From IMG/VR virus record IMGVR_UViG_2565956627_000012: a stretch of DNA of 13,451 nucleotides; one strand, written 5' to 3'. Positions within the stretch are counted from its first letter, which is position 1. Each line of letters starts with the position of its first letter. This DNA is from a virus. Taxonomy: Duplodnaviria > Heunggongvirae > Uroviricota > Caudoviricetes. The notes under the pieces were generated by a model, which worked only from the letters and a program-made list of their open reading frames with translations, did no database searches and was not told the DNA's origin. Positions 1,859-13,451 of the stretch are shown here, in pieces. Made by a program: the position numbers and the translations under genes.

Positions 1859-1878
1859 AGGGGGAGTATATGGCACAT

Positions 1879-1908
1879 AAAACAAAGGCGACCGGGGGCG
1901 GTCGCCAA
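1879..1908 (-). terminator. Rho-independent terminator for the leftward operon
   Basis: Perfect hairpin GGCGACCG-GGGG-CGGTCGCC at 1889-1908. Read on the minus strand it is followed by the T-rich tract TTTGTTTTAT (complement of 1879-1888). It lies about 60 nt downstream of the minus-strand stop at 1971 and stops read-through into alpA. Confidence 0.5.
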
Positions 1909-1970
1909 TGGGAAAACACTAAACATAAGCACGGGGATGATAGCCGCTATCAGGCTGGTGGGCAATGCAA

Positions 1971-2144
1971 TCAGTCTGGTTCAGTTCGTTGCCATACCTG
2001 CAATGAGCGCTTTTCCCTGTACTCTTTAAGGAATTGCTCAAGGGCAAAAGCACATGACGCGAATCTTTCTGATTCATGCTCTATCTTTCTGCGCCGTCTT
2101 TTCCGTGCCGGTGATAATGTTTTGGTCAATTCTTTATCGGTCAT
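1971..2144 (-). CDS. Small arginine-rich basic protein (hypothetical; candidate nucleic-acid-binding peptide)
   Basis: 57 aa from the ATG at 2144 (complement), preceded by AGGA with a 7-nt spacer; an alternative ATG lies at 2159. The protein contains the arginine-rich motif 'SPARKRRRRKIEHESER'. It is the second gene of a two-gene minus-strand operon with a downstream terminator. Confidence 0.4.
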   Translation of the reverse strand: MTDKELTKTLSPARKRRRRKIEHESERFASCAFALEQFLKEYREKRSLQVWQRTEPD

Positions 2145-2201
2145 TGTGTTGTCCTGCATAGCAATGCGCCGTAATACCTTACACCACGGCGCTGGTGATG
2201 G

Positions 2202-2381
2202 TTACTCCTGCTCTTTGGCTTTGCGGCGCTGGCGGCGTTTGATCTCGCCTTTTGCGGCAGTAACTAAAAAACCAGCGGTACTTTCGCCAGGTTCTTTAAG
2301 TTGCTCAATATCATCCATTACTTCATGTGGGATTCTGACAGTTGTCATTTGTGATTTTGCGTTCTTTGCACCAGTTGCCAT
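2202..2381 (-). CDS. Ribbon-helix-helix-like small DNA-binding protein (putative repressor/antitoxin-like)
   Basis: 59 aa from the ATG at 2381 (complement), with AGGAG 8 nt upstream. 'TTVRIPHEVMDDIEQL' fits a beta-strand followed by helix A, and 'GESTAGFLVTAAKGEI' fits the G-x-S/T turn plus helix B of the RHH (Arc/CopG/MetJ) fold. The C-terminus is basic. The longer six-frame ORF (to 2549) lacks an RBS and has an atypical N-terminus. Confidence 0.5.
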   Translation of the reverse strand: MATGAKNAKSQMTTVRIPHEVMDDIEQLKEPGESTAGFLVTAAKGEIKRRQRRKAKEQE

Positions 2382-2411
2382 TTCTGGATCTCCTAAAAAT
2401 TGGTGTATGTC

Positions 2412-2496
2412 AGTATACGCAAAAAAAATGATAAAAAAAGGCTTGAAGTGTATTTCACCAGTGAGTAAATTAAAAAGCAAAGGTGAAATACACCTG
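2412..2496. promoter_or_regulatory. Divergent promoter region with paired 12-bp inverted operator-like sites
   Basis: GTGTATTTCACC (2448-2459) and its reverse complement GGTGAAATACAC (2482-2493) are separated by 22 bp; 13 of 15 positions match when extended. A rightward promoter candidate is TTGAAG (2443-2448), 17 bp, TAAATT (2466-2471). A leftward -10 candidate is TATACT (complement of 2412-2417) upstream of the RHH gene. Confidence 0.35.
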
Positions 2497-2574
2497 AAAG
2501 AGCAACGCCCCGCAGTGCTCGCAACACATGCAGGGCGTCTAACCACCAACGATAGAAAGAGTATCGAGGTAGCT

Positions 2575-2778
2575 ATGAGAAATCATACCACACACCCGCA
2601 AGGGCGGGACTCGCACAACCTGAATAAATATATCTGGCGTTTTATCGCCCTGAGCACGGCACAACCGCGCGTGATTACCATTGAGGCCACCAGCGAACAG
2701 GAAGCACGCCAGCAATCCCCGGCTGGCTGCGTGATGGTATTCGCCGCCCGTATTCGTCAGGGGGTGAGTCATGCATAA
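2575..2778 (+). CDS. Hypothetical small protein (67 aa), first gene of the rightward replication operon
   Basis: ATG at 2575 with GAGG 5 nt upstream. Its stop overlaps the next gene's start (ATGCATAA). This is the 3' in-frame part of the long six-frame ORF 1870-2778, whose upstream portion is Cys/Ser-rich and antisense to RBS-supported genes. Confidence 0.4.
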   Translation: MRNHTTHPQGRDSHNLNKYIWRFIALSTAQPRVITIEATSEQEARQQSPAGCVMVFAARIRQGVSHA

Positions 2779-2998
2779 AATACCCTTTGATGTTCTTGTT
2801 CATTCTGAAAACGCATTAATCCGCGCAAAGGAAATGGACGCATTACTACTTAAGTTAATTGATGTGCCGGAAAGTGGCGATGAATCTGATTCAATGATGT
2901 TTTCTGCCGTGCGTACGCTATTAACGCCTGTTATTAATGAATTAAATACAGTGATGGCAATTCACGAGAATAATAAAGCGCAGCACACCGGAGAATAA
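2771..2998 (+). CDS. Hypothetical acidic small protein (75 aa)
   Basis: Start overlaps the upstream stop, indicating translational coupling. Composition is coding-like. No recognisable motif. Confidence 0.5.
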   Translation: MHKIPFDVLVHSENALIRAKEMDALLLKLIDVPESGDESDSMMFSAVRTLLTPVINELNTVMAIHENNKAQHTGE

Positions 2999-3003
2999 AA
3001 AAC

Positions 3004-3303
3004 ATGAAAAATAAAAATTCTGGCGTTACTGCCAGCGGCCCCGCTCGTCCTGAATTTATGAACGGCGATATTTACCGCGATAAATATGGCGGCATGGTAA
3101 CGATTAAAGGCGTGGCAGAACGGCGCATCACCTACCGCCGTGAAGGCTACGAATATGATTGCGTGATGCCTGTTTATCAGTTTCGGCGTGATTTTTCTCT
3201 GGTACAGGCAGCGCCCCGCAGTAAACCAACCAGCAGGGAGAAAGCACGCGCCAATATTCAGGAAATAAAAAAGATGCTTAACGTATTCAGGGGTAAAAAA
3301 TGA
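3004..3303 (+). CDS. Hypothetical protein (99 aa) immediately upstream of, and coupled to, the primase gene
   Basis: ATG at 3004 follows the upstream stop by 5 nt. Its stop overlaps the primase start (ATGA at 3300). Basic C-terminus. Confidence 0.5.
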   Translation: MKNKNSGVTASGPARPEFMNGDIYRDKYGGMVTIKGVAERRITYRREGYEYDCVMPVYQFRRDFSLVQAAPRSKPTSREKARANIQEIKKMLNVFRGKK

Positions 3304-5048
3304 AACTGGCACCGAACGTAAAAAAACAGCCACGCGGAATAAAACACAAAGACACAGAGGTAATTATTTTCGCGGGTAGTGATGCCTGGTCGCACGCGAA
3401 ACAATGGCAGGAGCAGGATGGCCCCGCATCCGGCGATAATGTGCCGCCTGTGTGGCTTGGGCCAAATCAGCTTGCCGAACTTGATGCGCTGAAAATTGTT
3501 CCGGATGGGAAAAAACGCGTAAGGCTGTACCAGGCCGGAGAACTGGATTTAGTGGAGACCAAAAAGATCGGTCAGAAGCTGGCGGCGGCAGATATTCAGG
3601 ATGCGAATTTTTACCCCGAAGGGGTGCACGGACAGAAATGTGAGAACTGGCGGCGCTATCTGAATGCTGAGCGTGAAAATATTGCCGCAGGGATCACCAT
3701 GCCGGAACAGAAAAAATCACAACTTTCACAGATGGCAGACAGTGAACGGGCACAGCTTCTTGCTTCCCGCTTTGATGGTGTCTGCGTCCATGCAGAAAGT
3801 GAAATCGTTCACGTATGGCGTGACGGGGTATGGTGTCCGGTCAGCACAATGGAACTGAGCCGCGAAATGGTGGCGGTTTATTCAGAACACGGGGCCACGT
3901 TCAGCAAGCGTGCAATTAATAACGCCGTTGAAGCGTTAAAAGTTATTGCTCAGCCAATGGGGGAGCCGTCCGGTGATTTGCTGCCGTTTGCCAATGGTGC
4001 GCTTGACCTGAGAACAGGGGAATTTTCCTCTCACCAGCCGGATAACTGGATCACCACACACAACGGCATTGAGTACACGCCGCCAGTACCAGGTGAGAAT
4101 ATCCGCGACAACGCGCCAAACTTTCATAAATGGCTTGATCACGCTGCCGGAAAAGACCCGGGCAAGATGATGCGCATATGTGCCGCGCTATACATGATTA
4201 TGGCGAACCGGTACGACTGGCAGATGTTTATTGAGGCCACCGGAGACGGCGGGAGCGGCAAGAGCACTTTCACGCACATAGCCAGCCTTCTGGCAGGGAA
4301 ACAGAACACCGTAAGCGCTGAGATGACATCACTCGATGATGCTGGTGGGCGTGCGCAGGTTGTCGGAAGTCGGCTTATTGTCCTGGCAGACCAGCCGAAA
4401 TATACAGGCGAAGGCACGGGCATCAAGAAAATCACGGGCGGCGACCCTGTGGAGATTAACCCGAAATATGAAAAGCGATTCACGACCATAATCAGGGCTG
4501 TGGTACTGGCGACCAACAACAACCCGATGATATTCACGGAACGGGCCGGAGGCGTGTCACGTCGTCGCGTGATTTTCCGTTTCGACAATATCGTCAGTGA
4601 GGCCGAAAAAGACAGAGAACTACCGGAAAAAATCGCGGCTGAAATCCCCGTCATTATCCGCCGCTTGCTGGCGAACTTTGCCAATCCTGAAAAGGCACGG
4701 GCTTTACTGATTGAGCAGCGTGACGGTGATGAAGCACTGGCAATAAAGCAACAGACGGATCCGGTTATTGAATTTTGCCAGTTCCTTAACTTTCTGGAAG
4801 AAGCACGCGGCCTGATGATGGGCGGCGGCGGTGACTCTTCCAGGTACACGACCAGAAACAGCCTTTACCGCGTCTATCTGGCGTTTATGGCGTATGTCGG
4901 CAGGAACAAGCCGCTGAACGTGGCTGAGTTCAGCAAAGCTATGAAGCCAGCGGCGAAAGTTTACGGACATGAATATATAACGCGCAGGATTAAAGGGATT
5001 ACGCAAACCAACGTGACAACAACAGACGACTGCGACGCGTTTTTATAA
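3300..5048 (+). CDS. Replication protein: primase / SF3-type helicase (phage-plasmid primase, P4-family-like C-terminal domain)
   Basis: 582 aa. Walker A P-loop 'GDGGSGKST' lies in the central/C-terminal part, and a Walker B-like 'RLIVLADQ' follows. Size and position (after alpA, before an iteron array) match satellite replication-initiator (Pri-Rep) genes. Confidence 0.85.
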   Translation: MKLAPNVKKQPRGIKHKDTEVIIFAGSDAWSHAKQWQEQDGPASGDNVPPVWLGPNQLAELDALKIVPDGKKRVRLYQAGELDLVETKKIGQKLAAADIQDANFYPEGVHGQKCENWRRYLNAERENIAAGITMPEQKKSQLSQMADSERAQLLASRFDGVCVHAESEIVHVWRDGVWCPVSTMELSREMVAVYSEHGATFSKRAINNAVEALKVIAQPMGEPSGDLLPFANGALDLRTGEFSSHQPDNWITTHNGIEYTPPVPGENIRDNAPNFHKWLDHAAGKDPGKMMRICAALYMIMANRYDWQMFIEATGDGGSGKSTFTHIASLLAGKQNTVSAEMTSLDDAGGRAQVVGSRLIVLADQPKYTGEGTGIKKITGGDPVEINPKYEKRFTTIIRAVVLATNNNPMIFTERAGGVSRRRVIFRFDNIVSEAEKDRELPEKIAAEIPVIIRRLLANFANPEKARALLIEQRDGDEALAIKQQTDPVIEFCQFLNFLEEARGLMMGGGGDSSRYTTRNSLYRVYLAFMAYVGRNKPLNVAEFSKAMKPAAKVYGHEYITRRIKGITQTNVTTTDDCDAFL

Positions 5049-5056
5049 TTTTAGAC

Positions 5057-5289
5057 AAAAGCCCTCTACCTCTTCTACCTTAAGAAAATAATTGCATATA
5101 TTTCATATGGATAGTTTTGGTAGATGGCAGGTAGAAGGCACTTAAAAGCCCTCTACACCCTCTACCATAATTCAGGGCATTTGTGAGGGGGTGGTAGATG
5201 ACAGGTAGAGGGCCAAAAAAGCCCTCTACCCCGCTGGAAACCGCGCCATTACTGACCTGAAAGATGATTAGGTAGAGAGGTAGAGGAGG
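5057..5289. repeat. Iteron array / putative origin of replication
   Basis: About 11 copies of the core CCTCTACC / GGTAGAGG in both orientations. Three copies of AAAAGCCCTCTAC(C/A) start at 5057, 5145 and 5217. Two copies of GGTAGATG(G/A)CAGGTAGA(A/G)GG sit at 5119-5138 and 5193-5212. An AT-rich block lies at 5081-5118. The array is directly downstream of the primase/helicase gene. Confidence 0.6.
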
Positions 5290-5334
5290 TGCACCACAAC
5301 CCAAAACTTTTTAAACACGAGGGTAAAAATAAAA

Positions 5335-5592
5335 ATGCACACTACAGAAAAACTTAACAATCAGAAGAAACCACACTACCGCGCTATTGACCTTACAGAG
5401 CACTGGCTGAGAGTGGCGATAAAAATCATCGACCGCAACACGGGGGAAGGATATGCGAAAGCACATCCTGAACTAATAAGCGCATTCATGACCACAGCGG
5501 CGGCAAACTTTGCCACGCTGACAGAACGGGAGATTGCCGAAGCGGAACAGGTAACAACCATCAACGTTAAAACCGGAGAGGTGGAATCATGA
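5335..5592 (+). CDS. Hypothetical protein (85 aa)
   Basis: ATG at 5335 with GAGGG upstream. Its stop overlaps the SSB-like start (ATGA). No recognisable motif. Confidence 0.5.
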   Translation: MHTTEKLNNQKKPHYRAIDLTEHWLRVAIKIIDRNTGEGYAKAHPELISAFMTTAAANFATLTEREIAEAEQVTTINVKTGEVES

Positions 5593-5999
5593 CAGCACAG
5601 ATAGCCGCTTACGGGCGGCTGGTGGCTGACCCGCAGTTAAAGACCACCAGCAAGGGCACACAAATGGCTATGGCAAGCATGGCGGTCCCCCTGCCGTGCA
5701 ATCAGGCAGATGACGGACAGGCGACGATGTGGTTATCCGTCCTGGCGTTTGGCAGACAGGCCGACGCACTGGCAAAACACCACAAAGGCGAGCTGGTGAG
5801 CGTGGCGGGTAACATGCAGGTAAGCCAGTGGACAGGCCAGAACGGCGAAACGCGGCAGGGCTGGCAGGTTATTGCAGACAGCGTAATCAGTGCCAGAACG
5901 GCGCGACCTGGTGGGAGCCGACGCAAGACCACAGGCACACAGGGTAATCAGCCACCAGCGGGAGGCGATGACCCTTACGGTGATGATATTCCGTTCTGA
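5589..5999 (+). CDS. ssb: Single-stranded DNA-binding protein (short SSB-like, OB-fold with acidic C-terminal tip)
   Basis: 136 aa. The N-terminus 'IAAYGRLVADPQLKTT...MAMASMAV' parallels the SSB OB-fold start. A Gly/Pro-rich linker 'RPGGSRRKTTGTQGNQPPAGG' is followed by the hallmark SSB tail 'DDPYGDDIPF' at the extreme C-terminus. Confidence 0.7.
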   Translation: MTAQIAAYGRLVADPQLKTTSKGTQMAMASMAVPLPCNQADDGQATMWLSVLAFGRQADALAKHHKGELVSVAGNMQVSQWTGQNGETRQGWQVIADSVISARTARPGGSRRKTTGTQGNQPPAGGDDPYGDDIPF

Positions 6000-6009
6000 G
6001 AGGGTGACG

Positions 6010-6267
6010 ATGGTACATGACCGCATAGCGGAAGAACTCGAGGCGAAAGGCTTTTACCGGAGAGCGTCGGCGCGATGGGGTGAAGTCATGCTACTGGTGG
6101 AGACAGACAAGGAACGGGAGCACATCACGATGCGACGGCTGGAATGTTGCAGAAAATCGACAAGGCCAGCACTCGGGCCGGACAATTTCAGCGATATTAA
6201 AAAAGCCGCTGATCGTGTTTATGCTGAAATGGGATTAGATAAATTAAAGGGGGAAACATGCCAGTAA
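6010..6267 (+). CDS. Small regulator-like protein, possibly PerC-family transcriptional activator
   Basis: 85 aa from the ATG at 6010, with GAGAGGG upstream. 'IAEELEAKGFYRRASARWGEVM...DKEREHITMRRLEC' resembles, from memory, the conserved core of PerC/Pch-like prophage regulators. Not verified by search. Confidence 0.4.
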   Translation: MVHDRIAEELEAKGFYRRASARWGEVMLLVETDKEREHITMRRLECCRKSTRPALGPDNFSDIKKAADRVYAEMGLDKLKGETCQ

Positions 6268-6518
6268 CCACAGAGGAAATTAAACGACACCGCGAATTAT
6301 TCGGCCTTGAACATCCGGCCCACACGACAACGGAGCGTTATCGCCAGCACCTGGCGGCGGGGGCGATATTCTGGGTTGATCATCATGGTTTTTTACGCAG
6401 CACGCTTTCCGGTGAAATTCTGGCGGCTGGTCCTGAACAGATTGATGCGCTCATCGCATATCTGGAAAAGGTGAAGCCCCGCACAGTGCAATCAGTACCA
6501 CCGGAAGACGTTAATTAA
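6258..6518 (+). CDS. Hypothetical protein (86 aa)
   Basis: ATG at 6258 preceded by a strong RBS AAGGGGG. It overlaps the upstream stop and is followed by a strong intrinsic terminator. Confidence 0.5.
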   Translation: MPVTTEEIKRHRELFGLEHPAHTTTERYRQHLAAGAIFWVDHHGFLRSTLSGEILAAGPEQIDALIAYLEKVKPRTVQSVPPEDVN

Positions 6519-6521
6519 TGG

Positions 6522-6552
6522 CCCAGCCCTGGTTTAACCAGGGCTTTTTTTG
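6522..6552 (+). terminator. Rho-independent terminator closing the replication/early operon
   Basis: Stem AGCCCTGG (6525-6532), loop TTTAA, stem CCAGGGCT (6538-6545), then a run of T at 6546-6551. Confidence 0.65.
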
Positions 6553-6575
6553 TCAGCTTTTGTAAATTATTTGTG

Positions 6576-6595
6576 CGTGGTTGTTCGTGGTTGTT
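6576..6595. repeat. Tandem direct repeat, 2 x CGTGGTTGTT
   Basis: Two perfect adjacent 10-bp copies in the leader upstream of the capsid gene. Confidence 0.3.
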
Positions 6596-6673
6596 CAGCG
6601 GCATGGCTGGCTTATTTTATCAGGCCCGAACCGTGGTTATTCTCGCCACTGTTGCCAGGACGCTGGGACCATT

Positions 6674-6712
6674 TTCCCGCCTGTTAATCTCATCAGCGTT
6701 AACAGGCGGGAA
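6674..6712. promoter_or_regulatory. 14-bp perfect inverted repeat TTCCCGCCTGTTAA-N11-TTAACAGGCGGGAA in the capsid-operon leader
   Basis: Perfect dyad at 6674-6687 and 6699-6712. No T-run follows on either strand, so a terminator is unlikely. It sits about 90 nt upstream of the capsid ATG and is a candidate operator, activator site or RNA structure. Confidence 0.35.
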
Positions 6713-6801
6713 GCCTGCATCGGTGTGCATTTCTTTTTGTTCTCGTACCGTGAGTCTTGCCGCGTCCTGGTGTTTTCCTCTTTGCATCAGGACTTTTTTT
6801 T

Positions 6802-7974
6802 ATGCCGAGAATTATCGAATTGCGCCAGCAGAAAACCGCCATCAAAAATCAGATGCGCGACATGCTGGAGAACGCGGAAAAAGAAAACCGCAGCCTTAAC
6901 GACGCCGAGGGCGCAAAATTTGACGAATTACGCGCTAAAGCTGAATCCCTCGATAAAGACATTTCCCGCCTTGAAGCCGTTGCCGACGAAGAGCGCAGCA
7001 AGCCAGGTAAAGCCAGCCAGACCACTGACCCCGCAGAACTTCGCAACTACATCGTAACGGGTGACGTTCGCTCATTATCCACCACCACCAACGGCGGCAA
7101 GGACGGTGGTTATACCGTTATCCCTGAGCTTGATCGCGAGGTTATGCGGTTACTGAGTGATGAAAGCGTCATGCGAATGATTGCGACCGTGAAAACGGCG
7201 AAATCAAACGAATATCAGAAACTGGTTTCCACAGGTGGCGCGGCTGTAAATTATGGAACCGAGGGCAGCAAGCGTAACGAAACCAACACCCCGAAAGTTG
7301 AGCGCGTAAGCATCAAACTTAACCCGATCTATGCCTACCCGAAAACCACACAGGAAATTCTGGATTTTTCAGAGGTGGACGTACTGGGCTGGTTATCGTC
7401 TGAAATCGCCGATACGTTCGCCACGACCGAAGAAGATGATTTTGTAAATGGTAATGGTACTGGCAAGCCGAAAGGTTTCCTGAGTTACAACCGAGATCTA
7501 ACCAACGACAAAACCCGCGCCTTTGGCACCATTGAAAAAATGGTAGCAGCAGCCGAAGCCGCCATTACAGCGGACGAACTGATCGACATCCTCTACAAGC
7601 TGAAAGCGAAATACCGTAAGAACGCCGTATGGGTGATGAACTCGAGCACAGCGGCAGCATTGCAGAAGCTGAAAAACCAGATCGGTGATTACGTATGGCG
7701 TGACAGCCTCAAAGAGGGCGCACCTGACACATTGCTGGGCCGTCCTGTTTATTACCTGGAAAGTATGCCGGACATCGGCAAAGGCAAAACGCCGCTGGCT
7801 GTCGGTGACTTTAAGCGCGGTTATTTCATCGTTGACCATGAAACGGGTATTCGTACCCGACCGGACAACATTACAGAGCCGGGTTTCTACAAGGTACACA
7901 CGGACAAATACATCGGCGGCGGGGTTGTTGACTCCCGCGCGATAAAAGTCCTCGAGATGAAAAACGGCGGTTAA
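6802..7974 (+). CDS. Major capsid protein, HK97 family, with N-terminal coiled-coil delta (scaffold-like) domain
   Basis: 390 aa from the ATG at 6802; the six-frame ORF starts at an upstream TTG. The N-terminal roughly 100 aa is charged and helical (delta-domain-like). The remainder has HK97-fold MCP character. No separate scaffold gene is present, consistent with HK97-type assembly. Confidence 0.85.
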   Translation: MPRIIELRQQKTAIKNQMRDMLENAEKENRSLNDAEGAKFDELRAKAESLDKDISRLEAVADEERSKPGKASQTTDPAELRNYIVTGDVRSLSTTTNGGKDGGYTVIPELDREVMRLLSDESVMRMIATVKTAKSNEYQKLVSTGGAAVNYGTEGSKRNETNTPKVERVSIKLNPIYAYPKTTQEILDFSEVDVLGWLSSEIADTFATTEEDDFVNGNGTGKPKGFLSYNRDLTNDKTRAFGTIEKMVAAAEAAITADELIDILYKLKAKYRKNAVWVMNSSTAAALQKLKNQIGDYVWRDSLKEGAPDTLLGRPVYYLESMPDIGKGKTPLAVGDFKRGYFIVDHETGIRTRPDNITEPGFYKVHTDKYIGGGVVDSRAIKVLEMKNGG

Positions 7975-7982
7975 CAGAAAAA

Positions 7983-8009
7983 GGGGCTAAAAAGCCCCTT
8001 TGGTGTTTT
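7983..8009 (+). terminator. Putative intrinsic terminator/attenuator between capsid and protease genes
   Basis: GGGGCT-AAAA-AGCCCC hairpin at 7983-7998 followed by the T-rich TTTGGTGTTTT. The 6-bp stem is short, so termination is probably partial. Confidence 0.45.
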
Positions 8010-8585
8010 ATGGGTGAAAAAAATATGAAAAAGAGCATGGAAATCCGGTCATCAGAAATCACCACCAGCGGAGCCAGTACGCTGACGGGTTACGTTGTTC
8101 GCTGGAATAACCTTTCTGATCTGCTATGGGGTGAGTTTTACGAAAAATTCCAGCGGGGGGCGTTCAGTGAGTGGCTGGCGGCGGGTAATGACGTTCGCGG
8201 CCTGTATGAGCACGACCACAGCATGTTACTGGGGCGTACCCGTTCCGGTACGCTGAAACTGGAAGAGGATGAAACAGGGTTACGCTTTGAACTGACCCCA
8301 CCGGATACCAGTACAGGGCGGGACGTTATCGAACTGGTTAAGCGTGGTGATATCTCGGGGATGAGCTTTGGCTTTCGTTCCCGTAAGGATGTATGGGATA
8401 CCACAACAGATCCATGCGTGCGCACCGTGCTGGTGGCGGAACTGTACGAAATTACCGTTACATCCGTACCGGCTTACCCTGATTCCGGCGTGGATCTGGC
8501 CCGCCGTTCCCTGTATGAGCAGCACCCCGAAAAAATGCCACGCGCGGATAATCGCCGCTGGTGGGCGGATTTAGCGGGGGTGTGA
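8010..8585 (+). CDS. Prohead maturation protease (HK97 family, peptidase S78/U35-like)
   Basis: 191 aa. A candidate catalytic His lies in 'LYEHDHS' and a candidate Ser in 'DISGMSFGF'. An alternative start ATG at 8025 has a better-spaced GGTGA. Its stop is followed 2 nt later by the portal start. Confidence 0.85.
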   Translation: MGEKNMKKSMEIRSSEITTSGASTLTGYVVRWNNLSDLLWGEFYEKFQRGAFSEWLAAGNDVRGLYEHDHSMLLGRTRSGTLKLEEDETGLRFELTPPDTSTGRDVIELVKRGDISGMSFGFRSRKDVWDTTTDPCVRTVLVAELYEITVTSVPAYPDSGVDLARRSLYEQHPEKMPRADNRRWWADLAGV

Positions 8586-8586
8586 T

Positions 8587-9801
8587 ATGTGGCCTTTCAG
8601 ACGAAAACAAGAGCATCGCAGCATGACGCTGGATGAATTTATGGCGCTGGCTGGCACATCGAACACGGGGGCGGGTGAGTACGTATCATCGGGGACAGCG
8701 GAATCACTCCCCGCCGTCATGAACGCCGTCACGGTCATCTCTGAGGCGGTGGCTACTATGCCATGCTACCTGTACCTGGTACGCAATGAGAAGGGGAAGG
8801 AGGCCCGCGAGTGGCTTGATTCTCATCCGGTCGATCATATCCTCAACGAGCGCCCGAACGCGTGGCAGACGCCCTATCAGTTTAAGCGAATGATGGTCCG
8901 CCACTGCCTGTTAAACGGTAATGCTTATGCGGTGATTCAGTGGGGGCGTGATGGTTTTCCGGTGGCTTTGCACCCTTACCCGCCGCAGTCGGTGAATGTT
9001 GAGCAGACAGGGGAACATAACTGGCGTTACCGCATCACTGACGCTTACAGCGGAAACACCCGCAACTATTTACCGTGGGAGGTTCTCCACCTTCGTTACT
9101 CCACGGATGACGGCTTTATGGGGCGCTCACCTGTGACCATCTGCCGCGAATCGCTGGGGCTTGGGCTGGCCCAACAGCGCCACGGCGCGAGCGTGATGCG
9201 TGATGGCATGATGGCAGCAGGGGTTATCACGTCAGGCGAATGGCTGGACGGCGTGAAGGGCAAACAGGCATTAGCCGCACTGGAACGCTACAAAGGAGCC
9301 AGAAACGCCGGAAAAACGCCCATTCTTGAAGGGGGTATGAGCTATCAGCGGCTTGGCATGAGTAACCAGGATGCTGAATGGCTGGCCTCCCGTCGCTTCA
9401 CCATTGAAGACATCGCCCGAATGTTCAACGTCTCGCCGATTTTTCTGCAGGAATACAGCAACAGCACCTACAGCAATTTCAGCGAGGCAAGCCGCGCATT
9501 TCTCACCATGACGATGCGCCCGTGGCTGGCGAACTTTGAGCAGCAGATAAAAAATGCTTTGCTGGTGGCCTCGCCTGTACCTGGTATCCGGTATCAGGTG
9601 GAGTTTGACAGCGCGGACCTGTTACGGGCCACACCTGGCGAACGCTTTGCCACCTATGAACGCGGCATCAAGTCCGGCGTTATGTGCCCGAACGAAGCCC
9701 GCGAACGTGAGGGATTATCGCCGCGTGATGGTGGCGATGAGTTCAGCCAGGCCTGGAAACAGGAGATCGAAGTAAAGGATGATAAAGAGGGCAAATCATG
9801 A
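8587..9801 (+). CDS. Portal protein (HK97-family-like)
   Basis: 404 aa. Size, position and sequence character fit a portal (for example 'FTIEDIARMFNVSPIFLQEYSNSTYSNFSEASRAFLTMTMRPW'). The stop overlaps the next start. Confidence 0.8.
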   Translation: MWPFRRKQEHRSMTLDEFMALAGTSNTGAGEYVSSGTAESLPAVMNAVTVISEAVATMPCYLYLVRNEKGKEAREWLDSHPVDHILNERPNAWQTPYQFKRMMVRHCLLNGNAYAVIQWGRDGFPVALHPYPPQSVNVEQTGEHNWRYRITDAYSGNTRNYLPWEVLHLRYSTDDGFMGRSPVTICRESLGLGLAQQRHGASVMRDGMMAAGVITSGEWLDGVKGKQALAALERYKGARNAGKTPILEGGMSYQRLGMSNQDAEWLASRRFTIEDIARMFNVSPIFLQEYSNSTYSNFSEASRAFLTMTMRPWLANFEQQIKNALLVASPVPGIRYQVEFDSADLLRATPGERFATYERGIKSGVMCPNEAREREGLSPRDGGDEFSQAWKQEIEVKDDKEGKS

Positions 9802-10136
9802 GAGCGGGGAGCATGAGGGATCGCATTGTCATCATGAGCGCGAAACTTTCCCGCCTCCCTTCCGGTGCAATGAAAAGCACATGGGAGGATGTTGCCACCG
9901 TATGGGCGGAGGTGAAAGGGATCAGCGGACGGGAACGCATGACCGCAGGTGCAGAAACGGCACAGGCAACCGTAAGAGTCTGGATCCGTTTTCGTGTGGA
10001 TGTTACGGCATCCAGCCGGATACGGGTACTCACGGGGGCTTATTCCGGCAATGAGCTTGATATTGTTGGCCCCCCCGTTCCCGACGGTAAAAGGACTCGT
10101 CTGGAAATTCTTTGTAAAACAGGTGCGCCACGATGA
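9798..10136 (+). CDS. Head-tail adaptor / head closure protein (Phage_H_T_join-like)
   Basis: 112 aa. Pattern 'DRIVI...W.DVATVWAEVKGISGRE...A....ATVRVWIRFRVDVT...RI......LDIV......G.RTRLEILC' matches the head-tail joining family as recalled. Start is translationally coupled (ATGA overlap). Confidence 0.65.
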   Translation: MRAGSMRDRIVIMSAKLSRLPSGAMKSTWEDVATVWAEVKGISGRERMTAGAETAQATVRVWIRFRVDVTASSRIRVLTGAYSGNELDIVGPPVPDGKRTRLEILCKTGAPR

Positions 10137-10429
10137 CAGCAGAATTAATCACCCTGGAAGAAGTGAAACTCCATTGCCGCATTGATGGCAATGAGGAAGA
10201 CCAGTTAATCAGCGGATACATCGCCGCCGCGCTTGAGGTGTGCCAGAAACACATCGGCAGGCGCTTTGATGACGGGCTGGAGTTCACGCCAGCCATAAAG
10301 ATTGGCTGCATGATGTACGTGTCGCAACTGTACGAATACAGGGCCACGGTCGGGGATGGAGACACAAAAGAAATCCCGCTGGCTGTAGGGATGCTCTGGT
10401 CGGTTTATCGTGATGTGGGGGTGTACTGA
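10133..10429 (+). CDS. gp6-like head-tail connector protein
   Basis: 98 aa. The N-terminal 'ITLEEVKLHCRIDGNEEDQLISGYIAAALEVCQ' matches the gp6-like connector family pattern (L.E.K.H.R.D...ED.LI...I.AA). Overlapping start/stop with both neighbours. Confidence 0.7.
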   Translation: MTAELITLEEVKLHCRIDGNEEDQLISGYIAAALEVCQKHIGRRFDDGLEFTPAIKIGCMMYVSQLYEYRATVGDGDTKEIPLAVGMLWSVYRDVGVY

Positions 10430-10869
10430 TGCCGTGGCAACCATTAAGACGATGCACAGAACCAGGCTGTAACAGGCGCGTTAAATCCGGCAAGTGTGAG
10501 GAGCACAGGCGGGCGGCATGGCGTGCAGAGGATGCCAGACGAGGACACCGCCGCGCGCGTGGGTACTCCAGACAGTGGGACAAATACCGCGCCATGTATC
10601 TGAGTAAAAATCCGTTATGCGTGCGATGCCTTGAGAAGGGGATATATACGCCCGCCGTGGTGGTGGATCACATTATCCCGATTAATGGCGGTGATGATGT
10701 TCTCTTCTGGCCCGAATGGAACCATCAACCATTGTGTCAGGCGTGTCATAACCAGAAAACGAAATGGCTTGATCCGGCAACAAAAAGCAAGCGTGCCGCA
10801 GGTGGATTTCGTGAAGAGGAAGAACGGGCCGCTAACCGCAATAACTGGATGTATGACGCTGATGAATGA
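10429..10869 (+). CDS. HNH endonuclease (terminase-associated, cos-phage type)
   Basis: 146 aa. An N-terminal Cys cluster 'CTEPGCNRRVKSGKCEEH' is followed by the HNH core 'VDHIIPINGGDD...NHQPLCQACHNQKT'. It sits directly upstream of the terminase genes, as in HK97-like cos phages. Confidence 0.85.
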   Translation: MPWQPLRRCTEPGCNRRVKSGKCEEHRRAAWRAEDARRGHRRARGYSRQWDKYRAMYLSKNPLCVRCLEKGIYTPAVVVDHIIPINGGDDVLFWPEWNHQPLCQACHNQKTKWLDPATKSKRAAGGFREEEERAANRNNWMYDADE

Positions 10870-11035
10870 GCGGGAACAAAACCGCCTTATCCGTGGACTT
10901 ATAAGGCAGCGTGACGCATGGAAGACACAGGAAACAGGGCATAAAGATAAAGCGTCAGGACGCGCAGAACGCATCACAGCGAAGCGATTAACCGACCGTG
11001 ACCGCGAGGTTATGGAATGTTTCCGCAATCGCTGA
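10862..11035 (+). CDS. Possible small basic ORF (57 aa) between HNH and terS; uncertain
   Basis: ATG at 10862 overlaps the HNH 3' end. The product is Arg/Lys-rich ('MNEREQNRLIRGLIRQRDAWK...'). No convincing RBS. It is the only candidate filling the 290-bp gap. Confidence 0.25.
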   Translation: MNEREQNRLIRGLIRQRDAWKTQETGHKDKASGRAERITAKRLTDRDREVMECFRNR

Positions 11036-11044
11036 TGAGGCTGT

Positions 11045-11075
11045 ATGACGGGGTGGGGGGGGCGTTTTCAGGACA
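11045..11075. other. Putative cos (cohesive-end) region
   Basis: G-rich block ACGGGGTGGGGGGGGCGTTTTC (11048-11069) in the HNH-terS gap. It resembles lambdoid cosN-proximal sequence (ACGGGGCGGCGACCTCGCGGGTTTTCGC) as recalled. Location is typical for cos in HNH-dependent packaging systems. Confidence 0.3.
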
Positions 11076-11159
11076 AACCCGACCCCGCCGGGCACCGAAC
11101 GCCTCCTCAAATTTTTATGCACGGGAATTTTTTGAAAAATAATCTGACGAAAAATAAGC

Positions 11160-11516
11160 ATGGCAAGACCACCGAAAGCCCCCGCCTACCTGGATGATAT
11201 CGCCGTGAAGCAGTGGCGGGAAAAATCGCGGCAGCTTGCGGAACGGGGAGACCTGACCCCCGCCGACTGGAGCAATCTGGAACTGTATTGCGTCAACTAC
11301 TCCATTTACCGGAAAGCCGTTGCAGACCTTGCGGCGCGCGGGTTCAGCATTGTTAACAGTCAGGGCGGCGAGAGCAGAAACCCCGCATTAAGCGCAAAAT
11401 CCGACGCTGAAAGAGTGATGATAAAAATGGCCTCCTTGCTCGGTTTTGACCCGATAAGCCGCCGTAAAAATCCACCGGAAACAGAAGAAGAGGACGAGCT
11501 TGACCGCCTGGAATAA
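11160..11516 (+). CDS. terS: Terminase small subunit (P27 family-like)
   Basis: 118 aa. The pattern 'W.NLELYCVNYSIYRKAVADLAARGFSI...G..RNPA....SDAERVMIKMASLLGFDPISRRK' matches the P27-family TerS signature as recalled. It lies directly upstream of terL and overlaps it. Confidence 0.8.
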   Translation: MARPPKAPAYLDDIAVKQWREKSRQLAERGDLTPADWSNLELYCVNYSIYRKAVADLAARGFSIVNSQGGESRNPALSAKSDAERVMIKMASLLGFDPISRRKNPPETEEEDELDRLE

Positions 11517-13161
11517 GTACGCAGAAGACGTAAAAACGGGCAAAATTCCGGCCTGTAAACGGTTAAAACAGGCTGTTAAACGGTACTTTTCGGACCTTAA
11601 AAGCCCCCTTTACACGTTCGATCGTGAGGTTGTGGAGCGGTTTATTGCCTTTTCCAGGGTGTGCCCGCACGTAAAAGGACCGATGCGTGGCAGACCCATT
11701 GAGCTGGAGCCGTGGCAGCAGTTCGCCTTTGCGTGCATCCTCGGCTTTAAGGTTAAGGCCACCGGACGGCGCAAATACACGAGCGCCTTTATCGAAGTGC
11801 CGCGCAAAAATGCGAAATCCACGACCGCCGCGATTCTGGCTAACTGGTTTCTGATTATGGAGAACGGTCAGCAGGATATCTACACCGCAGCGGTGAGCCG
11901 TGACCAGGCGCGGATCGTCTTTGATGATGCGCGTCAGATGTGCCTTTTATCCCGACCGTTACGCAGGCGGGTGAATATTCAGGCGCATAAGGTGATACAC
12001 CCGAAAACCAACAGCCTGTTAAAGCCACTGGCAGCAAAAGCGGCAACCATTGAGGGGACAAACCCGAGTCTTGCCATTGTGGATGAATATCACCTGCACC
12101 CAGACAACGGGGTTTATTCCGCACTTGATATGGGGATGGGCGCACGTCCCGAAGGGCTGTTATTTGCCATTACCACATCGGGCAGTAACGTCGTTTCAGC
12201 CTGTAAGCAGCACTATGATTATTGCTGCCAGATCCTGGACGGCGAAGAGGTCAACGATTCAATTTTTGTACTGATTTACGAACTGGACGACGAAAACGAG
12301 GTTGATGATCCGGCGATGTGGATAAAGGCTAACCCTAACATCGATGTTTCCGTCGATCGTGAAAAACTGGCCTCAACCATCCAGAAAGCGCGGGGTATTC
12401 CGTCGCAATGGGTGGAAATGCTCACCAAGCGATTCAATATCTGGTGTCAGGGGGCTACGCCGTGGATGGGTAACGGTGCATGGGCGGAGTGTGCCGGAAC
12501 GTTCGCGGAGGCGGATTTATACGGGCAGGAGTGCTACGCGGGGCTGGACTTATCATCAACCAGCGATATTTCCAGCGTGTGCTATGCCTTCCCGGTCGGT
12601 AAAAAGATTATGCTGGTTTCCCGTCACTATCTGCCGGAATTTCAGCTACAGAATCCCGCCAATAAAAACCGCGCCATCTATCGCCAGTGGGTAAAGGCGG
12701 GCTGGATACGCACAACACCGGGTGACTGCATTGATTATGACCGTATCCGTGATGACATCATGGCGGATGCAGAGAATTTCAATATCAGGCTGGTGGGCTT
12801 CGATACATGGAACGCCACGCACCTGAGGACGCAGTTACAGGGCGCAGGATTTGAGGTGGAGCCGTTCCCGCAAACCTACCTCAGATTCAGTCCGGCGGCG
12901 AAATCGTTCGAAGTTTTTGTTAACCGGAAGGTGATTGTGCATCGTGGTGATCCGGTGCTGGCCTGGTCAATGAGTAATGTTGTGATGCAGAGTGACGCGA
13001 ACGCCAATATCAAGCCGAACAAGAAAAAATCATCCAACAAGATAGACCCGAGCGTTGCGGCGCTGATGGCGTTTGGCACATTCCAGGCAGAGCACGAGGA
13101 CTTTGCATTCGATATGAGCGACAGCCACAAAGAGCGGCTTGCGGCGTTTGATGGGGTATGA
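11500..13161 (+). CDS. terL: Terminase large subunit (Terminase_1-like ATPase plus nuclease)
   Basis: 553 aa. Conserved N-terminal block 'WNKYAEDVKTGKIPACKRLKQAVKRYFSDL...YTFD'. A P-loop-like 'VPRKNAKSTTAA' and Walker B-like 'LAIVDEYHL' are present. The apparent start is TTG at 11500, with GAGGA 5 nt upstream, overlapping the terS 3' end. Confidence 0.9.
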   Translation: MTAWNKYAEDVKTGKIPACKRLKQAVKRYFSDLKSPLYTFDREVVERFIAFSRVCPHVKGPMRGRPIELEPWQQFAFACILGFKVKATGRRKYTSAFIEVPRKNAKSTTAAILANWFLIMENGQQDIYTAAVSRDQARIVFDDARQMCLLSRPLRRRVNIQAHKVIHPKTNSLLKPLAAKAATIEGTNPSLAIVDEYHLHPDNGVYSALDMGMGARPEGLLFAITTSGSNVVSACKQHYDYCCQILDGEEVNDSIFVLIYELDDENEVDDPAMWIKANPNIDVSVDREKLASTIQKARGIPSQWVEMLTKRFNIWCQGATPWMGNGAWAECAGTFAEADLYGQECYAGLDLSSTSDISSVCYAFPVGKKIMLVSRHYLPEFQLQNPANKNRAIYRQWVKAGWIRTTPGDCIDYDRIRDDIMADAENFNIRLVGFDTWNATHLRTQLQGAGFEVEPFPQTYLRFSPAAKSFEVFVNRKVIVHRGDPVLAWSMSNVVMQSDANANIKPNKKKSSNKIDPSVAALMAFGTFQAEHEDFAFDMSDSHKERLAAFDGV

Positions 13162-13451
13162 CGAGAATGAGCGAAACCGAACTACTAAAAATAATCCGCC
13201 GTGTTACCGGAGCCAGCCAGACAGCAGACAAACAGGAGGCCACGCAGCCGGACAGCGTGATAGCCGAAAATTACGCGCGTGTGGTGGCTGAGGTGATGCG
13301 CCGTGACGGTATTGAGCTTAACGGCGTGGATATGCGCAACATACGAACCAGAGTCCTTGAGTTGCTGGCATACCGTCGCCGTTCTCAACAACGGAGGGAG
13401 AGCGCGAAAAATACTTATCAGTGGAAGAAGCCGGAACGGTTGCGGCGGTAA
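13158..13451 (+). CDS. Hypothetical protein (97 aa) translationally coupled to terL
   Basis: ATG at 13158 overlaps the terL stop (ATGA); an alternative ATG lies at 13167. The stop TAA is the last three bases of the window. Basic C-terminus; no recognisable motif. Confidence 0.45.
   Translation: MTRMSETELLKIIRRVTGASQTADKQEATQPDSVIAENYARVVAEVMRRDGIELNGVDMRNIRTRVLELLAYRRRSQQRRESAKNTYQWKKPERLRR

Follow-up and report, generated by a model that had tools for sequence, protein, structure and literature searches.

The window analysed here (the whole stretch of 13,451 nucleotides) begins with an integrase gene (1–1239), an AlpA-type regulator, Icd-like remnants, a DUF4222 gene and a primase-helicase of the D5_N/P4 type. 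These are followed by an iteron origin, a small gene encoding 85 amino acids (orf85), ssb, perC, orf86 and a terminator, behind which the head genes are located in the order HK97-type capsid, protease, portal, head closure protein, connector, HNH, TerS and TerL. Such a set of int, AlpA, primase-replicase and head/packaging genes without tail or lysis genes, at a size of ~14–15 kb, corresponds to the definition of the capsid-forming PICIs (PMC10085698; 10.1101/2022.09.08.507074), and judged by its gene content the window is a cf-PICI, i.e. a phage satellite of Escherichia coli. This assignment is based on Pfam for integrase and primase of the window, on the RefSeq annotation of a 95%-identical island found between uvrB and bioD in E. 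coli ZH063 (L001), and on the Pfam lists of ten islands that encode an identical SSB. RefSeq annotates the ZH063 island alike and names its ssb product “single-stranded DNA-binding protein”.

The island replicase (3300–5048, + strand) is a D5_N/DUF5906/Pox_D5 primase-helicase of the P4-alpha type. In the gap of 286 nt between its gene and orf85 an iteron cluster is found (5062–5287), which can be considered as putative replication origin and consists of nine copies of CCCTCTACC in both orientations with at most one mismatch. All nine matches of the window at this threshold fall within the cluster, while chance would give 1.7 over its full length, and nine were not reached in any of 200 shuffles. 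The iterons are adjoined by AT-rich DNA with 35–38% G+C at about 5000–5150. The gene map and the iteron count thus agree with the first-pass annotation of this DNA, which had placed the SSB in the replication module of a satellite just after the origin. Ten nucleotides past the ssb stop codon starts perC (6010–6267, + strand), the gene of a PerC-family regulator, and its end is overlapped by orf86 (6258–6518, + strand; PHROG 1957), the last gene ahead of a strong hairpin resembling an intrinsic terminator (6525–6545, + strand; a 9-bp stem with six GC pairs, then seven T). This hairpin is likely the end of the transcription unit that holds ssb; a search for a strong terminator between the primase gene and position 6525 gave none.

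The ssb gene itself, as read from the sequence, occupies positions 5589–5999 on the + strand, starts with ATG and encodes 136 amino acids followed by a stop codon, the C-terminal end of the product reading ...GGDDPYGDDIPF. Three parts can be distinguished, namely an OB domain (residues 1–103; 5589–5897) with all modelled strands within residues 2–101, a disordered basic linker rich in Gly, Pro and Thr (residues ~104–126; 5898–5966) and the acidic tip DDPYGDDIPF (residues 127–136; 5967–5996). Upstream, the gene is closely joined to orf85. A Shine-Dalgarno-like GGAGAGG (5575–5581, + strand) lies within the 3′ end of orf85, 7 nt before the ssb ATG, and the TGA of orf85 (5590–5592) overlaps this ATG (5589–5591) by four nucleotides, giving ATGA. 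The ZH063 island has the identical junction, agaggtggaatcATGACA. Translational coupling of ssb to the 85-aa ORF had been proposed. The four-nucleotide overlap stands, but coupling to orf85 is specific for the E. coli lineage and not a general property of the family. Since ATG-ACN (Met-Thr) opens ssb in every family member, the ATGA overlap is also partly intrinsic and weakened as evidence.

Predicted fold and conserved residues of the island SSB

Family profiles and predicted structure agree in identifying the 136-aa ORF as a genuine bacterial-type single-stranded DNA-binding protein and not a chance reading frame, in line with its first description as a short SSB. Pfam SSB (PF00436) matches residues 5–99 with E=1.3e-16 (61 bits vs a cutoff of 26), NCBIfam TIGR00621 is passed with 60.1 bits vs a cutoff of 53.95, and PHROG 44 (“single strand DNA binding protein”) is matched at 6.7e-41. 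In a sequence search of the PDB 29 of the 30 matches are SSBs, the remaining one being a marginal catalase (E=0.0047). The best of these matches is Thermus SSB 2FXQ (E=5e-13), where the aligned region includes the tail as far as its final ...PF.

From 29 family sequences AlphaFold2 predicts strands at residues 2–11, 16–19, 25–35 and 45–54, a helix at 55–62 and two further strands at 69–82 and 88–101, with pLDDT of 72–91. The model shows the topology of an OB fold, in which the helix is inserted between strands 3 and 4 of a five-stranded barrel. The tail (residues 104–136) has pLDDT <50 and is predicted to be disordered. When the model was compared with the PDB by Foldseek, the top 50 matches were all SSBs (E ~2e-9, target TM ~0.8), including SsbA/SsbB of Staphylococcus aureus, SsbA of Bacillus subtilis and E. 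coli SSB (EcSSB). The first-pass annotation had spoken of an OB-fold-like N-terminal half, and had made its reading depend on an OB fold in structure prediction; this fold is present in the model, but its extent has to be corrected, as the domain comprises three quarters of the protein.

Comparison with EcSSB (reference sequence verified as identical to 1EQQ) shows which parts of the binding site are retained. Three of the EcSSB residues that stack on ssDNA, W54, F60 and W88, correspond in the alignment to W48, F54 and W81, which are invariant in 29 family members, whereas the position of W40 has no aromatic counterpart, meaning that three of four stacking residues are kept. At the position of H55, which is located at the tetramer interface of EcSSB, the island protein has Leu49. 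The OB domain can be expected to bind ssDNA. The linker (residues 102–126 with 6 Gly, 3 Pro, 4 Thr and 5 Arg/Lys) had been described as Gly/Pro-rich and disordered, and both its composition and the low pLDDT agree with this; it is in addition rich in Thr and basic. Being short and basic it may alter cooperativity if compared to EcSSB. At least three alternative versions of the linker occur in the family, while OB domain and tip are conserved.

The canonical acidic tip DDPYGDDIPF is likewise present, and E. coli SSB ends in the same five residues, DDIPF. Across the full-length alignment A3 D127, D128, P129, I134 and F136 are invariant, F136 also in alignment A1, and D132 and P135 are conserved to at least 90%, as is I134 once the distant member from locus L003 is included. 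In EcSSB the terminal Pro-Phe together with acidic residues binds the chi subunit, PriA, RecQ, ExoI and other proteins. Recruitment of host partners by the island tip would follow from this knowledge of EcSSB by analogy. The tips of more distant family members drift (DDETPF, DDDF, NDEPEF), and therefore what is conserved in the family may be a function other than the binding of host SSB partners.

A short SSB clade and its genomic neighbours

Proteins identical to the island SSB are encoded on 577 contigs in NCBI, where they are already named SSB. In all ten places that were examined the gene belongs to a cf-PICI, with the D5_N primase and orf85 immediately ahead of it. The ten islands are integrated at no fewer than two attachment sites (roxA/phoQ and cspD/clpS), and one genome harbours two islands with identical SSB. 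Of 5426 complete E. coli genomes, 1831 (about a third) contain a blastn match to the orf85–ssb pair, and in 1391 of the 1831 at least 80% of the pair is covered. A single genome can have as many as six such places; almost all are chromosomal, and all are annotated as SSB.

The gene order replicase – ori – small ORF – ssb – perC recurs with different replicases. An island of O157:H7 (L002), in which phage genes are limited to capsid, decoration and TerS, has a version with a RepA helicase, and locus L003 a version with a P4-family primase. In a scan with one genome per species, neighbours being mapped by ORF and blastp, 48 loci from about 25 genera of the Enterobacterales were found. At ~40 of the 48, in int-alpA islands, the SSB gene comes immediately 3′ of a replicase gene (P4-type primase, D5 primase or RepA helicase); three unrelated replicase types thus adjoin this SSB family. 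Only some of the ~40 replicase-linked loci have cf-PICI head genes, and a minority of loci (L025, L033, L034, L044, L051) have SSB without an adjacent replicase. Less similar members, with 45–50% identity, are found in the same kind of element, arranged as AlpA – Toprim primase – DUF927/DUF3631 – SSB. Examples are an Aquisalimonas element with int-AlpA-Toprim-DUF927-ProQ-SSB and an element of a metagenomic genome with AlpA-Toprim-DUF3631-SSB; a third distant element is a repeat unit of ~9.6 kb with integrase, AAA_25 helicase and Dam. When 1.84 billion representative proteins were searched with a profile, the outcome was 28 clusters at E<=1e-30 and 490 at E<=1e-10, mostly of 125–160 aa and many with FDDxIPF-like tips.

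On sequence comparison the satellite proteins form a separate clade of short SSBs, set apart from the SSBs of hosts, plasmids and known phages, with a signature of its own (an N-terminal MTAQIAAYGRL, PLPC, and a C-terminal DDPYGDxIPF). The subfamily models of the enterobacterial chromosomal SSB (NCBIfam NF006533/PRK09010; 24.5 bits vs a cutoff of 260) and of the conjugative-plasmid SSB (NF010292/PRK13732; 20.3 bits vs 265) both fail. Together with only 25% identity to EcSSB this led us to reject an origin of ssb from host or plasmid. Plasmid matches by tblastn were few and scattered. A tblastn search of 50,697 phage genomes for a close relative gave none above 32% identity, the best matches coming from Gram-positive or gut phages, among them SSBs of streptococcal and staphylococcal siphophages, and an origin from a phage of Enterobacteria is therefore unsupported.

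How the gene moves can be followed by comparing the window with the ZH063 island. Both are 100% identical over 1–2600 and 6001–13451, in contrast with 62–98% identity in between (2600–6000), where the origin is lowest with 62–67%. This means that the block from orf75 to ssb was exchanged as a unit. Its right edge is the ssb stop codon, and perC is the first gene outside. The orf85–ssb pair of ZH063 is closer to the pair of the RepA-type island L002 than to that of the window, thus orf85–ssb can also move independently of the replicase. Purifying selection is seen in all three genes analyzed, with dN/dS of 0.06–0.21 for ssb, 0.20–0.47 for orf85 and about 0.1 for the primase.

The dN/dS of orf85 (5335–5592, + strand; 85 aa) indicates that it is a real gene. 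It belongs to PHROG 1231 with unassigned function, has no Pfam, NCBIfam or PADLOC match, and is modelled by AlphaFold2 as a helical hairpin of low confidence (pLDDT 61, pTM 0.31). We considered orf85 as a conserved partner of the SSB and rejected this. Homologues of orf85 occur in E. coli, Shigella and Citrobacter only. Just 13 of 40 loci have an upstream reading frame of 40 aa or more whose stop codon falls at the ATGA, and these ORFs are mutually unrelated (hhalign of the orf85 profile against the upstream ORF of L003: probability 0.3%). The slot 5′ of ssb is elsewhere occupied by ProQ/FinO (L041, E=4.5e-18; L063), by PerC or by the primase itself.

Proposed role of the island SSB

The identification of ssb as such is ordinary and adds nothing new, since exactly this protein is already named SSB in the public RefSeq/NCBI annotation, and SSBs on mobile elements are a well-known kind of protein. 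In the searchable literature, including the three defining papers and the preprint on cf-PICI mobilization, no mention of ssb in PICI or cf-PICI biology was found. Its recurrence in replication modules of enterobacterial PICIs, cf-PICIs and P4-like elements is therefore absent from the searchable satellite literature, and the same is true for the separate clade with its partner-binding tip identical to that of the host.

We regard it as probable that the gene encodes a functional bacterial-type SSB that ends the cf-PICI replication module and acts as an accessory replication protein at the island fork. After activation of the island by a helper phage, the rightward operon (alpA ... primase-helicase – ori – orf85 – ssb – perC – orf86) would be transcribed up to the hairpin at 6525–6545. 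The D5/P4-type primase-helicase would open the iteron origin at 5062–5287, and the OB domain of the island SSB would coat the exposed single strands, with W48, F54 and W81 stacking on them. The tip with its DDIPF end could then dock host SSB-binding proteins, above all the chi subunit of Pol III and besides it PriA and repair nucleases. In this way the island helicase-primase, which would replace DnaB and DnaG, could be coupled to the host polymerase. The island SSB would also top up the SSB pool during joint replication of helper and satellite. Partner binding, co-transcription with the replicase, the oligomeric state and the need for the protein in island replication are presumed here. A precedent is known from RK2/RP4, where a small ssb that complements ssb-1 is located in the operon of the replication initiator trfA (PMC7314908; PMC7690428). 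The SSBs encoded in plasmid leading regions are a further precedent (PMC7314908; PMC7690428). More generally, SSB is encoded by half of the dsDNA viruses and is, with helicase and primase, among the replication proteins that these viruses encode most often (PMC4889955). If ssb affects satellite replication or helper interference it would join int, alpA and pri-rep as core satellite function, and would offer a simple handle on the connection of satellites to the host replisome.

This reading can be widened to the whole clade. The short SSBs with the pattern MTAQIAAYGRL ... FDDxIPF could represent a satellite-restricted hallmark SSB across Gammaproteobacteria, lacking in sequenced phages but kept next to three or more unrelated replicase types in small integrative elements of the AlpA type, with a host-mimicking tip that links the P4/D5-type helicase-primase to host Pol III and other partners. 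Satellite replication would thereby become independent of the host SSB pool and possibly compete with the helper. In this breadth the proposal is doubtful; if true, ssb would be an unrecognised core gene of replication and interference in Gram-negative PICIs and cf-PICIs.

The first-pass annotation had offered two functions, namely support of island replication and competition with host SSB for its partners. The genomic context favours the former, since ssb is the last gene of the replication block that was exchanged as a unit and stands beside three replicase types, yet the two functions are not separated by it. As a competitor the protein would divert host SSB partners (by its DDIPF tip) or ssDNA from the helper or the host chromosome; replication of the helper, or SOS and recombination, would be damped to the benefit of the satellite, and its own fork would not be served. 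The identity of the last five residues with those of the host SSB fits such a role, as does the confinement of the clade to satellite-like elements when the best of 50,697 phage genomes is only 32% identical. Interference functions are moreover common just downstream of the satellite ori (PMC6092414). In contrast, ssb recombines with the replicase/ori block and not with the downstream genes for packaging and interference, and it stays beside three unrelated replicase types. The intact OB domain, the invariant stacking residues and purifying selection also point to real ssDNA binding rather than to a decoy that needs the tip only, and PADLOC has no match for the SSB. On balance we hold interference as the main function to be improbable.

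A different objection is that the protein, even if functional, merely duplicates what the cell already provides. Host SSB is abundant, and neither lambda-type helpers nor satellite P4 are known to use their own SSB in replication. Plasmid SSBs can substitute for host SSB, but no specific function of their own has been demonstrated and even their role in conjugation is still unclear (PMC7690428). For these reasons the island ssb could be redundant, a passenger without measurable advantage under most conditions that is kept since it is small and linked to the replication block. Truncated or disrupted copies in the family (L042, L044, L045, L048, L049, L050) are consistent with this. Nevertheless, purifying selection on ssb is strong (dN/dS 0.06–0.21) and the tip is conserved, and the gene has been retained across ~25 genera beside different replicases as well as in roughly one in three complete E. 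coli genomes, which makes redundancy an unlikely explanation for its presence.

A role in establishment, recombination or anti-defence, in which the SSB protects or processes satellite DNA after injection, at cohesive ends, during circularisation or integration, or serves as a decoy or shield where ssDNA or phage SSBs are sensed or attacked by host systems, is suggested by analogy with the leading-region plasmid SSBs induced upon entry to a new cell (PMC7314908; PMC7690428) and by the nucleic-acid-binding ProQ/FinO protein sometimes found 5′ of ssb (L041 and L063), but it is very improbable, as the island is without a recombinase (SSAP) partner, ssb is located in the induction-phase operon behind the replicase and away from cos or the entry-proximal end, and PADLOC models for defence and anti-defence match neither the SSB nor orf85, PerC or orf86.

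Comparison with known SSB systems

The protein can be set beside the SSBs of hosts and other elements. With E. coli SSB (1EQQ/1EYG; PRK09010) it shares the architecture of a single OB domain, a disordered linker and an acidic tip with identical DDIPF. The OB domains are only 25% identical, however, and the island SSB is shorter (136 aa vs 178 aa of EcSSB). The linker of EcSSB has ~56 aa and is uncharged, whereas that of the island protein has ~25 aa and is basic. In addition Leu replaces H55, an equivalent of W40 is absent and the L23 loop is three residues shorter.

The short SSBs of Gram-positive bacteria and their phages (S. aureus, B. subtilis SsbA/SsbB; PHROG 44) include the best structural matches (TM ~0.8, 27–29% identity), and the best sequence match, 2FXQ, is to Thermus/Deinococcus SSB, namely to its C-terminal OB domain and the tail with ...DLPF. 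Identity to all of these is at most 32%, though; they derive from unrelated hosts and elements, and the satellite clade has its own signature. Bacteriophage T7 gp2.5 is another SSB encoded by an element, and its acidic C-terminus, which ends in Phe, couples it to the helicase-primase and polymerase of the phage itself. It is dimeric, belongs to a different OB family and binds phage instead of host proteins. Homology with the island SSB was not detected, and the likeness is one of functional analogy.

Among SSBs of mobile elements, RK2/RP4 Ssb is similar in being small and in sharing an operon with a replication initiator; it has a presumed role in vegetative replication and complements E. coli ssb-1 when derepressed (PMC7314908; PMC7690428). 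A close sequence relationship is not detectable, no IncP plasmid being found among the tblastn matches. The gene order also differs, as ssb of RK2 precedes the initiator whereas ssb of the island follows replicase and ori, and RK2 is a conjugative plasmid while the island is a phage satellite. The leading-region SSBs of F, ColIb-P9 and other plasmids (PRK13732) are mobile-element SSBs of Enterobacteria as well and able to replace the host SSB (PMC7690428). Their N-terminal domain, however, is a close homologue of that of EcSSB and they are expressed on entry, whereas the island SSB is part of a replication module.

Exchange of the replication block

The window and the 95%-identical island between uvrB and bioD in Escherichia coli ZH063 (L001) show 100% identity over positions 1-2600 and 6001-13451, whereas over 2600-6000 their identity falls to 62-98% with the origin as the most diverged part. 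This swapped stretch covers orf75, the DUF4222 gene, the primase gene (3300-5048), the putative iteron origin (5062-5287), the 85-aa open reading frame orf85 (5335-5592) and ssb (5589-5999). Between the two islands the entire replication block from orf75 to ssb is exchanged through recombination.

The slot between origin and ssb is occupied by orf85 in E. coli and by unrelated small open reading frames, PerC or the primase itself (L015) in other lineages. In elements of Lelliottia (L041, 9507-10004; E=4.5e-18) and Aquisalimonas (L063, 7582-8004) it is an open reading frame of the ProQ/FinO family that overlaps the start of ssb. With such differing occupants this slot has to be regarded as variable.

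Other elements carrying the ssb cassette

The island between roxA and phoQ of E. coli O157:H7 strain 7636 (L002) has the same left half as the window (int-alpA-DUF4222-replicase-orf-ssb-perC) but its replicase is a RepA helicase. Its morphogenesis genes encode only a capsid protein, a head decoration protein and TerS, and portal and TerL are absent from the gene content of this island. It is a different satellite type that has the ssb cassette in common with the window. The SSB identical to that of the window is found in two cf-PICIs of a single genome, one of them (L053) interrupted between the protease and portal genes by an IS21-family element with transposase and IstB (12662-14631), the other (L054) intact.

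Enterobacter-like primase–SSB islands are also present on contigs labelled Chryseobacterium sp., Candidatus Paceibacterota (MAG) and Sphingomonadales (MAG) (L023, L036 and L043), with protein identities of up to 92% to genes of the P4-family primase locus L003. These labels probably reflect contamination or misbinning rather than true host range. In a metagenome contig of 23 kb (L062), whose SSB belongs to the same clade as that of the window, the gene order (integrase, small open reading frame, SSB, AAA_25 helicase, Dam and others) recurs at intervals of about 9.6 kb, a repetition that points to a small circular element or to an assembled concatemer.

Two further reading frames of the window

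The low-complexity reading frame of 302 aa on the + strand (1870-2778) is probably not a gene. The counterpart of 1870-2780 (both strands) in the near-identical island L001 carries annotations of Icd-like pseudogene fragments and a small antisense gene of the YlcI/YnfO family, and the region looks like an accessory region in decay. A 97-aa reading frame (13158-13451) lacks a stop codon up to the final nucleotide of the window and so may be cut there; its sole match, a marginal one to PADLOC BrxA (E=0.0096), is most likely due to chance.

PerC and its neighbourhood

The region 3' of ssb (6010-6545) comprises a PerC-family regulator (6010-6267; E=2.5e-36), an overlapping 86-aa open reading frame (6258-6518; PHROG 1957) and a strong terminator (6525-6545) directly before the capsid operon. 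This PerC may control packaging genes or host virulence genes. Among PICI-encoded PerC homologues some are reported to activate the LEE island and one to repress it, and with others LEE1 promoter fusions were reportedly unaffected (PMC6092414, PMC11773190).
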